Below, piece by piece: positions 49,272 through 55,339 of a stretch of DNA of 64,000 bases. A program made the translations under genes and the position numbers. The notes under the pieces were generated by a model that saw only the letters and a program-made list of their open reading frames with translations, was not told the origin of the DNA and ran no database searches. Positions within the stretch are counted from its first letter, which is position 1. Each line of letters opens with the position of its first letter. The DNA lies in NCBI RefSeq assembly GCF_003018235.1, contig NZ_CP027439.1; one strand, 5' to 3'. Source of the stretch: Escherichia coli. GTDB lineage: Bacteria; Pseudomonadota; Gammaproteobacteria; Enterobacterales; Enterobacteriaceae.

Positions 49272-50045
49272 TTAATAATCGTGCCGGCTATCAACCGAAT
49301 GATACTGTGTTAGAACTGCCTGTTTTCGATAGTCATAACGGTGCCAGTTCCATGGCTGAACGCGCCATGGAACTGGCACCAACCCACATCCGGGATGGGG
49401 AAAAAAATCATCAGGATATCGTTGCGCTGCCATTAATGCTTCCCGTCTGCCATCAGAGCACCCGGTAAAGTAGGAATATCTTGCGTTTTGACCGTAAAAT
49501 GCCGTGATCAAAACCCTAGTTGCCTGAGCAGTAAGATGGACACTGCGGTAAGCAAAATCTGTTCGCAACCGCGAATCTTTGCCAAAAGAACCATCGGCTA
49601 CAGTATGTCCCATGTCAGTTGCTGAAGTAACAAAAGAACCATCTGTTATATGGGGGCATCCGCCAGCAGCACCGATTTCATCTGATATTCGTCCACACAA
49701 ACCACCGCAGCCAATCTGAAGAGAACGCTGACGCCAATTCTCTGTTGGTAAACGAACCTCAAAGCCAATCTGAGGAGCCAGACGCCCTGTAACAATGCAG
49801 ACTTTACGGTTTTCATCCAGAGTCGCTTTCAGAACCTGACTTCCCTCCCCGGCAATAGAGGTTAAATCAGTTTGTTGTAGCGCGGAGCAATCAGTGACTG
49901 GATTTATTCCAGCCAAATCTTCATAGTTTTTGGGGGAAACTGGTGTCGCCGGGAAGTGCTTATTTGCGGATAATACGGATACAGGAAAAATGAGAGAGCC
50001 AGTAAAGAGCGCTAATGATATGAAGCACTTCAATTTTCTATTCAT
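49272..50045 (-). pseudogene. Tannase/feruloyl-esterase-family gene, 3'-truncated
   Basis: Signal peptide plus GCSDGRRE (family motif GCSxGG) but only 257 aa against roughly 500+ expected; no continuation in 48950..49270. Confidence 0.5.
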
Positions 50046-50210
50046 ATATACCCCGTTTGTAAATGATGAGAGGGAAATATCACGCTATTATATATTAACG
50101 CACAATTATGAAAAAATATGGAGTCAGCTCAGAATATCCACTGTATTACAGTGAATTCCTTCGATTAATTTCAGAACGAATGCCAGGAAAATGTACAGAG
50201 GATTAACGTT

Positions 50211-50759
50211 CTATTTCACAAAGCTCATCAATCTTTTTCGTGTCTTTTCTGAACCGAACTGCAACACCATCCAGGGACTAAACACCCGTGGTGAGGTTAT
50301 CAATGTCTGATACAGTGCATCTAACGAAACCCAGTAACAGTCCATCACTTCGTCCGGGTTAGGGGTTATTGTGTTTGTTAGTTTAGCCGCATATACCGGG
50401 CAAAGTTCATTTTCCATAATCCCACTGGTGTCTGTTGCGCAATAGCGAAATTCTGGATAAACAGGGGTTATATCAGTAATTTCTGCTCCGACTTCAAAGT
50501 GACAGCGGCGCGTAATGGCTTGTTCGAAAGATTCATTCAGCTGTGGATGTCCGCATACCGAGTTTGTCCAGACACCTGGCCATGCTTTTTTTCCAAGTGA
50601 GCGGCGAGTTATCAAAACCTGGCCTTCACTATTGAAGAGCCAGCAGGAAAAAGCCAGGTGGAGAGGGGGGTGAGTTGTGTGTACATCATATTTTTCTTCC
50701 GTGCCAATGAATTCTCCTTTCTCATTCAGTAAAAGAACATATTCCCGTCCTTTCATCAT
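50211..50759 (-). CDS. idi: Isopentenyl-diphosphate delta-isomerase (type 1, Nudix)
   Basis: 182 aa with HLAFSCWLFN, ITRRSLGKKAWPGVWTNSVCGHPQ, NELCPVYAA, SPWMVLQ, strong match to Idi. Confidence 0.88.
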   Translation of the reverse strand: MMKGREYVLLLNEKGEFIGTEEKYDVHTTHPPLHLAFSCWLFNSEGQVLITRRSLGKKAWPGVWTNSVCGHPQLNESFEQAITRRCHFEVGAEITDITPVYPEFRYCATDTSGIMENELCPVYAAKLTNTITPNPDEVMDCYWVSLDALYQTLITSPRVFSPWMVLQFGSEKTRKRLMSFVK

Positions 50760-50849
50760 GGCTCCTGATAATATATTAAAATACGTTGGATAATTCTGTG
50801 CTCATCTGTCCTTTACTGCGTCAGTGAGCACAGTTATGTTGATTTTTAT

Positions 50850-51566
50850 TTATGCAAATAAACTGGCCCACAGGGCAGAAATCGGCATAACCAGAATTAA
50901 GCCAGGTAGCATATTGGCGACGGGAAAAGCTTTAATATTACAAATACGTAGTCCGGTCGCGACCATTATCAATCCCCCCACGCAGGAAAAGTCGGCCATC
51001 ATATCTGGTGTAATCAGATGCAATATATATACAGCCAGCATAGCCAGAGCTACTTGTACGATAATTAACGGAACCCCGATAGTCATTACAGAGAACCCCA
51101 GCATGGTAGCGAAAATTGCCGCAGTGAAAAGGTCCAGCACAGTTTTTATGTATAAAATAGATGGATCTCCGGTCATCCCTTCATGCATAGCGCCAAAAAT
51201 ACCGGTGCCACTGGCACAGAATAGCACCAGAATTGCGACAAATTTCTCAGTAAATTCATCATGCGTTAATCCCTGAACGGGTGGGAAAATGCGGTTTATC
51301 AGTCCCCGGGTTGTTCCGGCAACTCTGCCAATCTGTTTTTCCAGGAAAAACATCTCGCCAATAATGGCTCCAATAACCATTGCCAGCACCACCGCAGGCA
51401 TGTATTTCACCTTGATTACAAGATTAATACCAAGACCAACCGAGCAAAGCCCGAAGGTCAGGGGGAGTGCCGTTTTTACGCGATCGGGGATGCGTGTACC
51501 GATAAGCGCACCGAACAAACCACCCACGATTACTGCTGCGCCATTCACATATGGTCCTGTTAACAT
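50850..51566 (-). CDS. Polytopic membrane protein (YqgA/DUF554-like), possible transporter
   Basis: 238 aa, multiple hydrophobic segments; family call is from memory only. Confidence 0.55.
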   Translation of the reverse strand: MLTGPYVNGAAVIVGGLFGALIGTRIPDRVKTALPLTFGLCSVGLGINLVIKVKYMPAVVLAMVIGAIIGEMFFLEKQIGRVAGTTRGLINRIFPPVQGLTHDEFTEKFVAILVLFCASGTGIFGAMHEGMTGDPSILYIKTVLDLFTAAIFATMLGFSVMTIGVPLIIVQVALAMLAVYILHLITPDMMADFSCVGGLIMVATGLRICNIKAFPVANMLPGLILVMPISALWASLFA

Positions 51567-53651: not shown

Positions 53652-53816
53652 TGAGTTGCTCCTGTTGATTAGCAGTAAGACTGATGACGGTGTACCTTAA
53701 TATCCGACAAAAAATGCGACAAATACCGTTTACCTGTATCTGAGTAGATCAAAAAAGTGTGAGGGGCTGAAAACCTGATGTACACTCCCCAACAGCATAC
53801 GGGACTGAGGGGATTT

Positions 53817-54761
53817 ATGGATTTAAAGCGTTTACGTTACTTCTGTCGGGTGGTGGAACAGGGCTCAGTAAGTCGGGCTGCAAAAGTGTTGAATATGGCG
53901 CAGCCACCACTTAGTAAACGTATTCAGGAACTGGAGGATGAGTTGAAAACGCCGCTCTTTATACGCAAAGGTAATCGTATCGAGCCAACAGAAGCGGGTT
54001 TTTTTCTCTATCGTAAAGCATGCGAGATCCTGCGTCAGGTGGAAGATACTACGCGGGAGACTATGGCTATTGCGCAAAAAAATAATCCCAAACTTCATCT
54101 GGGAATTACGCACCTTTTTCAGTCTTATTTCAAGTCGCTACTACTGGCATTTTGTGAACGTAATCCAGATATAGAAGTGAGCATATCAGTTACAGACTCA
54201 AGTCACCTGGAAGATTTACTTAATGAAGGTACAATTGATTTGGCTCTGATCCAACGACCGTATCATGATGATGGGTATGATGTTGTTTCTTTTGATCCCA
54301 TAAAACCTGTGGCTGTAATCAGTAAAAAATGTTTGCCATACATATCTGATACGCCTGTTAACTATATAACACTGGCCAGCTTCCCGCTGATATTGTTACA
54401 TCGGGCGAAGGATTCTGGCATCTATGAAAAACTGCTTGACTTATTCAGGAAGACAGGAGTAACTCCAGAAGTGTTAATGCATATATCCCAGCCGGGTATG
54501 ATTATCGACTGGCTGGAGTCAGGGCTGGCTGCGGCCACTCTTTTACCTTCATCAGAAGTAGACGCAACTTGTTTACGCCATTGTCACGTGGTAGATATTT
54601 TCCCCTCCCCCCAGCTTTTTTATCCTGCGATGGTGAAAATGCCTGCTACTAACTGGATTCCAGAAGTAATGGAAATAATTGCAGCCGGATATCCCTGCAA
54701 CATGAATACAGTTATTCCATATGTTAAGGAAAGAGAAGTTTCGCTCACTCGTGACAAGTGA
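53817..54761 (+). CDS. LysR-family transcriptional regulator (divergent from the decarboxylase operon)
   Basis: N-terminal HTH MDLKRLRYFCRVVEQGSVSRAAKVLNMAQPPLSKRIQELEDEL. Confidence 0.88.
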   Translation: MDLKRLRYFCRVVEQGSVSRAAKVLNMAQPPLSKRIQELEDELKTPLFIRKGNRIEPTEAGFFLYRKACEILRQVEDTTRETMAIAQKNNPKLHLGITHLFQSYFKSLLLAFCERNPDIEVSISVTDSSHLEDLLNEGTIDLALIQRPYHDDGYDVVSFDPIKPVAVISKKCLPYISDTPVNYITLASFPLILLHRAKDSGIYEKLLDLFRKTGVTPEVLMHISQPGMIIDWLESGLAAATLLPSSEVDATCLRHCHVVDIFPSPQLFYPAMVKMPATNWIPEVMEIIAAGYPCNMNTVIPYVKEREVSLTRDK

Positions 54762-54892
54762 GCGAACACGTGCGGTGGATAATATGGCTACCATTCTAAA
54801 CAACAGTCAATATATGTGTTAAATTAATGTTTGCTAATATATGTGCTGGTCTGCTATTGACTGGTCAGATATCAAGACCAACAATATACAAG

Positions 54893-55339
54893 ATGGAAAT
54901 ATTGATGACGATCAGCCGTTGGCTGAAAAAACAACATGTTCTCACTTGGTGCGTACAGCAGAAAGGTGAACTCTGGTGTGCAAATGCTTTTTATCTGTTT
55001 GATGCGGATAAAGTAGCTTTTTATTTACTTACGGAGGAAAAAACGCGTCATGCACAAATGAGTGGTCCAAAGGCACATGTAGCCGGAACGGTAAACGGAC
55101 AGCCTCAAACGATAGCATTAATCCGTGGTGTGCAATTTAAAGGTCTGATTCGTCTACTGGAAGATGAGGAAAGTCACCTCATACGGCAGATATATAATCG
55201 TCGTTTCCCTATTGCCAGAATGTTGTCAACACCAGTATGGGAGATCCGTATCGACGAAATCAAATTCACTGATAATACACTGGGATTTGGTAAAAAACTT
55301 GTCTGGCAACGCCCAATAACTGAACAGCAAGGAATATAA
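54893..55339 (+). CDS. YhbP-like protein (UPF0306 / PNPOx-like fold)
   Basis: [59 protein letters not shown] resembles E. coli YhbP as I remember it; start codon uncertain. Confidence 0.65.

Follow-up and report, generated by a model that had tools for sequence, protein, structure and literature searches.

A plasmid-borne operon of Escherichia coli encoding an AroY-like UbiD-family decarboxylase, with a probable role in the non-oxidative decarboxylation of protocatechuate or gallate

A plasmid contig of Escherichia coli (NZ_CP027439.1, assembly GCF_003018235.1) carries a cluster of genes centered on a UbiD-family decarboxylase, together with genes for the synthesis of its prenylated flavin mononucleotide (prFMN) cofactor. 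In this study, a stretch of 64,000 nucleotides of this contig (the window) was analyzed. All positions are those of the window unless a related locus (L) is named. The genes and features of the cluster are as follows:
52179-53651, minus strand: AroY-like UbiD-family decarboxylase, 490 amino acids
51584-52168, minus strand: UbiX-family flavin prenyltransferase, the synthase of reduced prFMN (prFMNH2), 194 amino acids
50850-51566, minus strand: DUF554 polytopic membrane protein, 238 amino acids
50211-50759, minus strand: type-1 isopentenyl diphosphate isomerase (Idi), the last intact gene of the operon, 182 amino acids
49272-50045, minus strand: 5' remnant of a tannase/feruloyl-esterase-family (PF07519-type) gene, an open reading frame (ORF) of 257 amino acids
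53817-54761, plus strand: LysR-family regulator, divergent from the operon; the RefSeq start is the methionine of MDLKRL..., and the longest ORF begins at 53778
54893-55339, plus strand: YhbP-family protein; the RefSeq start is at 54893, and the longest ORF begins at 54827
53652-53816, unstranded: divergent intergenic control region between the operon and the LysR gene

Each of the seven genes named in a first-pass annotation of this DNA was recovered as an ORF in the place assigned to it. The genes of the operon are separated by gaps of 10, 17, 90, and 165 nt, with ubiX lying 10 nt 3' of the decarboxylase gene. No terminator-like sites were found between the operon genes, in a promoter/terminator scan that performed no better than on shuffled sequence. 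The product of the divergent gene was matched by many LysR-family models from residue 14 onward in profile searches. LysR orthologues (42-79% identity) occupy the same position at related loci, and the divergent arrangement is kept in most of them. Relatives were collected by a one-genome-per-species scan, which returned 304; the best 80 loci were analyzed by tblastn and ORF clustering, and 76 independent loci were used for co-occurrence counts. UbiX was found with the UbiD homolog at 56 of the 76 loci, LysR at 55, and DUF554 at 46. The gene arrangement is therefore not a product of chance, because LysR, UbiX, and DUF554 recur beside the UbiD homolog across independent loci.

The class of the decarboxylase was assigned by a sequence search of the PDB. 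The top matches were the AroY entries 5ny5, 5o3n, and 5o3m (E ~1e-201, 673 bits), followed by HmfF (234 bits) and the Fdc1 entries (70-83 bits, E ~1e-22). Residues 1-488 of the window protein align to residues 1-489 of 5ny5, and the identity to AroY of Enterobacter cloacae is 61-62%. Close homologs carry PF20695, PF01977, and PF20696, the three-domain architecture of UbiD. The best match among the NCBIfam models was VdcC, with a score (457.3 bits) below the cutoff of 650 bits. The first-pass annotation had left the placement between Fdc1-like, UbiD, and VdcC types; with Fdc1 at 83 bits and VdcC under its cutoff, the enzyme is placed as AroY-type instead. Orthologs with 80-96% identity are present in many Enterobacterales. 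At all 80 related loci the UbiD homolog has an identity of 69% or more to the window protein, whereas its identity to AroY does not exceed 64%. No gene for a D subunit was found at the locus, since the intergenic gaps of only 10-165 nt leave no room for one. Purified gallate decarboxylase of Pantoea agglomerans is reportedly hexameric, with subunits of 57 kDa, as would fit an enzyme of this type.

It has been shown that mutation of R188, H327, K363, H436, or E289 abolishes the activity of AroY (the numbering is that of AroY; PMC5656893). All five residues are kept in the window enzyme, as R187, H326, K362, H435, and E288, and R171 is conserved as well. AroY decarboxylates protocatechuate and gallate alike (PMC5656893). 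The AroY class of the enzyme and its conserved catechol-binding residues argue for a ring carboxylate of the catechol type (protocatechuate or gallate) as the predicted substrate, rather than cinnamic acids.

The first-pass annotation had suggested a self-contained hydroxycinnamate pathway, in which an esterase frees the acid and the UbiD-like enzyme, with prFMN as its cofactor, decarboxylates it. Spelled out, a feruloyl esterase would free ferulate or p-coumarate, and an Fdc1-like enzyme would convert these acids to vinylphenols. The UbiD family does include ferulic acid decarboxylase, and PF07519 includes feruloyl esterases. Moreover, when the intact esterase encoded on plasmid pEA36_2 of Escherichia albertii was compared with proteins of solved structure, feruloyl esterase B (FaeB) was the second-best relative (E 4.1e-47), after MHETase (E 4.5e-52). 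These points are set against the low score of Fdc1 (83 bits versus 673 for AroY), the conservation of all catechol-binding residues that position a ring-bound carboxylate, and the truncation of the esterase gene in the window. We thus regard a hydroxycinnamate pathway as very improbable. What stands of the earlier description is a self-contained prFMN decarboxylase module with UbiD, UbiX, LysR, and idi; the hydroxycinnamate substrate and the esterase step are not supported.

The state of the esterase gene was established by comparison with the intact gene of pEA36_2, which encodes a protein of 584 amino acids (WP_273782077.1). A segment of 1116 bp (L002 6257-7372) is absent from the window, with the deletion junction at 49403/49404, so that codons 1-214 are authentic and are followed by 43 unrelated codons. 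No informative microhomology was found at this junction. The authentic codons retain a signal peptide and the GCSDG nucleophile motif. The deleted part holds the C-terminal GLADQH and GVYHCGGG segments, which align to MHETase in the intact protein and which carry the catalytic Asp and His in this family. The ORF in the window is thus predicted to be an inactive remnant without a full Ser-Asp-His triad, and release of the acid by an esterase, as first proposed, would not be expected from a copy that keeps 214 of 584 codons and has lost the Asp/His part. On the plasmids, the module has a tannase-family gene beside it. One also adjoins the module in Mangrovibacter, with an identity of only 46%. 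In relatives with an intact gene, a secreted tannase-family esterase would free the acid from plant esters; on the window plasmid only free acids would be usable, because the esterase gene is truncated.

The genes for cofactor supply were assigned with high scores. UbiX matched NF004685 with 260.6 bits (cutoff 188) and TIGR00421 with 223.1 bits (cutoff 108.9). Idi matched NF002995 with 250.9 bits (cutoff 127) and TIGR02150 with 149.4 bits (cutoff 105.8); its scores against the IDIs of Salmonella (3hyq) and E. coli were 249 and 229 bits, respectively, and it is 57% identical to Idi of E. coli K-12. The eight catalytic and metal-binding residues of E. coli IDI (H25, H32, C67, H69, E87, Y104, E114, and E116 in its own numbering) are invariant across 31 module-linked IDIs. 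At 30 of the 80 loci the module is followed by idi; the chromosomal surroundings of these loci vary, and Bacillota are included. In 14 loci of Enterobacteriaceae, idi is the last gene of the operon and a convergent lysS comes next; Klebsiella, Kluyvera, Kosakonia, Citrobacter amalonaticus, Enterobacter soli, and Phytobacter are represented among these loci. A Klebsiella locus that was examined in full continues from idi into lysS-prfB-recJ-dsbC-xerD-fldB. In E. coli K-12, idi stands alone at the same lysS-proximal position (L087, 3033065-3033613, compared with L085 of Klebsiella pneumoniae), and no remnants of ubiD, ubiX, or DUF554 were found upstream of it. The linkage of idi to ubiX and ubiD on a plasmid had been noted as unusual; this is true of the plasmid location, which is rare, and not of the linkage, which is standard near lysS on the chromosomes of many Enterobacteriaceae.

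The idi gene also stays with the module where no lysS is adjacent, as in Mangrovibacter (beside ligB-gmk-rpoZ-spoT), Raoultella, and Lonsdalea. In three Bacillota loci a type-1 IDI gene lies inside the UbiD-DUF554-UbiX cluster. In one of these three, from a metagenome-assembled genome (JAEYCM010000005.1; L082, 12850-13719), the gene that comes right after ubiX codes for an LpdD-like domain joined to a type-1 IDI. The N-terminal part of this fusion matches PF21758 (E 7.6e-31) and the LpdD structure 8p4w (E 1.5e-5), and its IDI domain scores 153 bits, above the equivalog cutoff of 127. Stand-alone LpdD-like genes are present in six other Bacillota loci (L068, L072, L075, L076, L079, and L081). 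LpdD is a prFMNH2-binding chaperone (PMC10865409). The link between idi and ubiX looks functional, as judged from gene context and residue conservation, because idi is kept away from lysS, recurs in Bacillota, is fused to an LpdD domain, and has invariant residues; the supply of dimethylallyl diphosphate (DMAPP) would in this way be coupled to prFMN synthesis. The earlier proposal that Idi feeds the prenyl donor gains from the linkage in 30 of 80 loci, the variety of contexts, and the LpdD-IDI fusion of Bacillota. A literature search for idi-ubiX operons gave nothing functional. Many UbiX enzymes need DMAPP to be dephosphorylated to dimethylallyl phosphate (DMAP), and this step is not encoded in the module.

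The YhbP-family protein of the plasmid scored 245.7 bits with NF002900 (cutoff 176) and is 79% identical to YhbP of K-12. Its AlphaFold2 model has a mean predicted local distance difference test score (pLDDT) of 91.7, and Foldseek matched the model with a probability of 1.00 to split barrels of the pyridoxamine 5'-phosphate oxidase-like (PNPOx-like) type that bind flavin or heme. At 21 of the 80 loci, from six orders, ubiX or DUF554 has a YhbP-like gene (31-58% identity) as its direct neighbor. In Paraburkholderia tropica (L047, 13772-14955) the YhbP-like gene shares 7 nt with the end of ubiX, stop codon included, an overlap that points to translational coupling of the two genes in this species. 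AroY-like genes are present at two loci of P. tropica (L040 and L047). A 404-amino-acid ORF that appeared to fuse UbiX and YhbP in Paraburkholderia (L048) was rejected as an artefact of ORF calling in GC-rich DNA; the real genes are adjacent, with a 7-nt overlap.

The family was also considered as a homolog of the prFMN helpers LpdD and PhdC. This was rejected: a PDB sequence search gave no match, and the YhbP model matches PNPOx-like barrels. The fold of LpdD is Pba3/4-like (PMC10865409). Judged by the model, what is left between YhbP and PhdC is only a loose analogy of fold class. No literature on the YhbP family was found. An accessory role of YhbP related to prFMN is a plausible hypothesis, given the modeled fold and the gene neighborhoods. 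Core yhbP is present in 5,424 of 5,426 E. coli genomes. In K-12 it is annotated as a putative FMN-binding protein (L088, 3299472-3303367) and lies 0.8 kb from ubiT-ubiU-ubiV, the genes for oxygen-independent ubiquinone biosynthesis; this neighborhood is kept in Mixta calida (L091).

A possible but on balance unlikely explanation is that the core decarboxylase works as proposed while idi and yhbP are passengers, idi having come along from the idi-lysS locus of the donor and yhbP being an unrelated neighbor. The 14 Enterobacteriaceae loci in which the module idi lies at lysS would be expected under it, as would the lone idi of K-12 at that position and the close similarity of plasmid YhbP to the core protein. 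The chromosomal Enterobacteriaceae modules at lysS are without yhbP, and when four contexts of YhbP-family genes were sampled, neither ubiX nor ubiD was nearby in any of them, which leaves a universal YhbP-UbiX link unsupported. Passenger status does not account for the loci of Mangrovibacter, Raoultella, and Lonsdalea, where idi accompanies the module away from lysS, or for the Bacillota clusters that contain idi, once fused to the LpdD chaperone domain. For yhbP, it is opposed by the genes that abut ubiX or DUF554 in six orders and by the overlap with the ubiX stop in Paraburkholderia. At the other end stands a bolder and rather doubtful idea: that YhbP-family split barrels, the core E. coli YhbP included, bind prFMN as a maturase or chaperone of UbiD enzymes in the manner of LpdD and PhdC, that type-1 Idi was recruited to supply the prenyl donor, and that the so-called non-essential E. 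coli idi beside lysS is the surviving last gene of such an operon.

The membrane protein was identified as PF04474 (DUF554; E 1.1e-63, residues 3-230 on positions 1-219 of the 220-position model). Its gene adjoins the UbiD homolog in 46 of the 76 loci, those of Bacillota among them, and we consider it, by analogy, a candidate transporter of the aromatic acid or the phenol.

Based on these analyses, the operon is probably a LysR-controlled system for non-oxidative decarboxylation that forms catechol from protocatechuate, pyrogallol from gallate, or both. It would provide its own prFMN, and DUF554 is a candidate transporter. The divergent LysR protein would switch the operon on when an aromatic acid is present. 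Idi, whose enzyme class is clear from its matches, would raise the DMAPP pool, and an unlinked dephosphorylation to DMAP may be needed. UbiX would then prenylate FMNH2 to prFMNH2, which is the established function of its family. The AroY-like enzyme, with its assigned class and conserved active-site residues, would bind and mature prFMN and decarboxylate the acid, probably as a stand-alone assembly given that no D-subunit gene is present. The gallate transporter of Lactobacillus plantarum offers an analogy for DUF554, which may move substrate, product, or both across the inner membrane, and YhbP is a possible flavin-binding helper.

The closest known enzyme is AroY of E. cloacae and K. pneumoniae (5ny5, 5o3m, and 5o3n), with which the window enzyme shares the UbiD fold from end to end, the active-site residues, the lack of a D-subunit gene, and the dependence on a UbiX-type prenyltransferase. 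It differs in that the window enzyme appears to belong to a separate clade and its operon has its own ubiX, DUF554, and idi genes and a divergent LysR. The VdcBCD, BsdBCD, and EcdBCD systems likewise combine a UbiD-family C protein with a UbiX-family B protein and act on ring carboxylates; the window enzyme, unlike these, falls below the VdcC cutoff and has no D-subunit gene. It has been shown that VdcC is inactive without VdcD (PMC10865409).

The system closest in logic is that of L. plantarum, in which gallate induces tannase, LpdC, LpdB/LpdD, and a transporter together, and which produces a proton-motive force (PMC4600210). The resemblance of the present cluster to this system (TanB, LpdC, LpdB, LpdD, and lp_2943) lies in the combination of an esterase, a UbiD-type decarboxylase, UbiX, a membrane protein, and an inducible regulator (PMC4600210; PMC10865409). 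All five components are present in pEA36_2, LR890578, and Mangrovibacter, in families that differ from those of L. plantarum. The membrane protein is DUF554 here and an ion-transporter-superfamily protein there; the esterase here is of PF07519 and truncated in the window; there is no LpdD gene, and a YhbP-family protein and Idi are found instead; and all genes of the window lie in one locus. TanB of L. plantarum is a different alpha/beta hydrolase. The likeness is an analogy and not a homology of whole systems. Two kinds of prFMN helper have been described, the prFMNH2 chaperone LpdD and the split-barrel prFMN maturase PhdC/YclD (PMC13040415). YhbP is, like them, small and encoded beside ubiX/ubiD, and PhdC belongs to the flavin-binding split-barrel proteins (PMC13040415), as the YhbP model does by its fold. 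It differs from LpdD and PhdC in having no sequence match to them, and its best structural matches are PNPOx-like and not HpaC-like reductases.

The related loci come from Enterobacterales, Pasteurellales, Neisseriales, Burkholderiales, Aeromonadales, and Orbales, and in the Bacillota loci UbiX and DUF554 accompany the enzyme and LysR does not. A comparison of synteny, which had been proposed as a check on the first-pass annotation, showed that the LysR gene divergent from UbiD-UbiX-DUF554 recurs on the chromosomes of Proteobacteria and that the operon ends in idi in many Enterobacteriaceae. The module in the window is a mobilized copy of a widespread chromosomal operon. It was earlier held that the reading would fall if the cluster were a common chromosomal segment with a different established role; the segment is indeed common on chromosomes, and no different role was found for it. 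Neither did we find a description of this operon family in the searchable literature. The closest UbiD homolog (96% amino acid identity) is encoded on a Pseudocitrobacter chromosome. Pseudocitrobacter was ruled out as a recent donor, because synonymous divergence (dS) is saturated at about 1.5.

Brenneria, Lonsdalea, and Gibbsiella, which are associated with oak, have orthologs, and so does Lonepinella koalarum, a tannin degrader of the koala for which COG0043 is listed among the genes unique to the species. The ecology of these bacteria fits a substrate derived from hydrolyzable tannins. A literature search on oak pathogens and UbiD found nothing.

Among plasmids the module is rare: it was found on three of 72,556 (pSCU-111-1, pEA36_2, and LR890578) and in one of 5,426 complete E. 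coli genomes, in none of them on the chromosome. The esterase gene lacks its 3' two-thirds in the window and in pSCU-111-1. In pEA36_2 the esterase gene is intact; its ubiX has a 51-bp in-frame deletion (L002:9735-9790) bounded by the short repeat CAGCAGA, and a frameshift in the LysR gene (L002:11686-11790) replaces the first ~30 residues, the helix-turn-helix region. In LR890578, an additional ~1.26 kb, which holds two transposase-sized ORFs, lies between ubiD and lysR (L003:9643-10903), and the intact esterase gene is convergent to the operon, as in Mangrovibacter, whereas that of the window is co-directional. These lesions and rearrangements, an insertion sequence that abuts the island, and the rarity of the module would all be expected if the island were decaying cargo with no present function in Escherichia plasmids. 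In the window, however, full-length genes are kept for LysR, the decarboxylase, UbiX, DUF554, Idi, and YhbP, and the ratio of nonsynonymous to synonymous divergence (dN/dS) between the window and LR890578 is 0.035-0.2, which indicates that the plasmid copies have been under purifying selection. We therefore judge decay without function to be quite improbable, and retain the proposal of a working aromatic acid decarboxylation operon.

Several observations weigh against this proposal, or against parts of it. K. pneumoniae has both AroY (5o3n) and an 89% identical ortholog of the window gene; the two enzymes therefore appear to be paralogs and may differ in substrate. The identity to AroY is only ~62%, and positions beside the active site differ (H285K, T328V, F364L, G435C, and Q437P), so the exact substrate preference may not be that of AroY. 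No catechol or pyrogallol catabolic genes are adjacent at the loci inspected. DUF554 is a family without known function, for which a literature search gave nothing functional. MHETase and feruloyl esterase B, and not a proven tannase, are the nearest solved relatives of the intact esterase. Finally, each of the three plasmid copies has a different lesion, and the full pathway may thus not be maintained in Escherichia.

The assignment shifts the predicted chemistry of the cluster from vinylphenols to catechol or pyrogallol formed from plant hydroxybenzoates; these are polyphenol products relevant to the gut. The operon family (LysR, AroY-like enzyme, UbiX, and DUF554, joined in some loci by Idi and YhbP) appears to be undescribed though widespread; the enzyme type itself is known. 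The recurrent linkage of idi and the LpdD-IDI fusion are genomic evidence that the supply of prenyl donor matters for prFMN enzymes, and this bears on AroY-type enzymes in strains for muconate or catechol production. DUF554 and YhbP, both families of unknown function, gain a concrete context, and YhbP could bear on the unsolved activation of UbiD in E. coli.

The replicon is confirmed as an F-type conjugative plasmid of E. coli. The ORF list includes an IncFII RepA at 45939-46808, F-type tra genes occupy 22000-45000, and the region is 99.7% identical to pSCU-111-1, a conjugative IncF plasmid from a human rectal swab. The location on a conjugative plasmid given by the first-pass annotation is borne out by these three results. 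The borders of the island are marked by the following features:
55384-55454, plus strand: fragment of the yacB toxin gene, 71 bp (91.5% identity to yacB of L001), which marks the inserted island's right edge
47725-48242: intact yacA and a yacB-like ORF to the left of the island; the yacB-like ORF is at 47991-48242 and takes its name from the annotation of pSCU-111-1
55761-56060 (99 amino acids) and 56099-56923 (274 amino acids), plus strand: two overlapping transposase ORFs of an insertion sequence, IS3-family-like as assigned by eye

In a plasmid search, 55384-55454 was the sole part of the query common to more than 1,000 IncF plasmids. The intact yacAB on the left and the yacB fragment on the right suggest that the island entered an IncF backbone at the yacAB region, either by insertion or by recombination. 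The IS3-like element directly abuts the island on its right side. A scan of 47000-57500 with Rfam returned zero RNA families. From 57652 onward the window has a low guanine-plus-cytosine (GC) content (33-40%); this stretch includes a small ORF of the LuxR helix-turn-helix type (57652-58203) and an OmpA-family gene on the minus strand (58276-59076), and in pSCU-111-1 a gene for a YadA-like adhesin comes next. A marked trough in GC content (36-41%) lies at 9000-13000, inside a part of the plasmid that is otherwise 52-59% GC.

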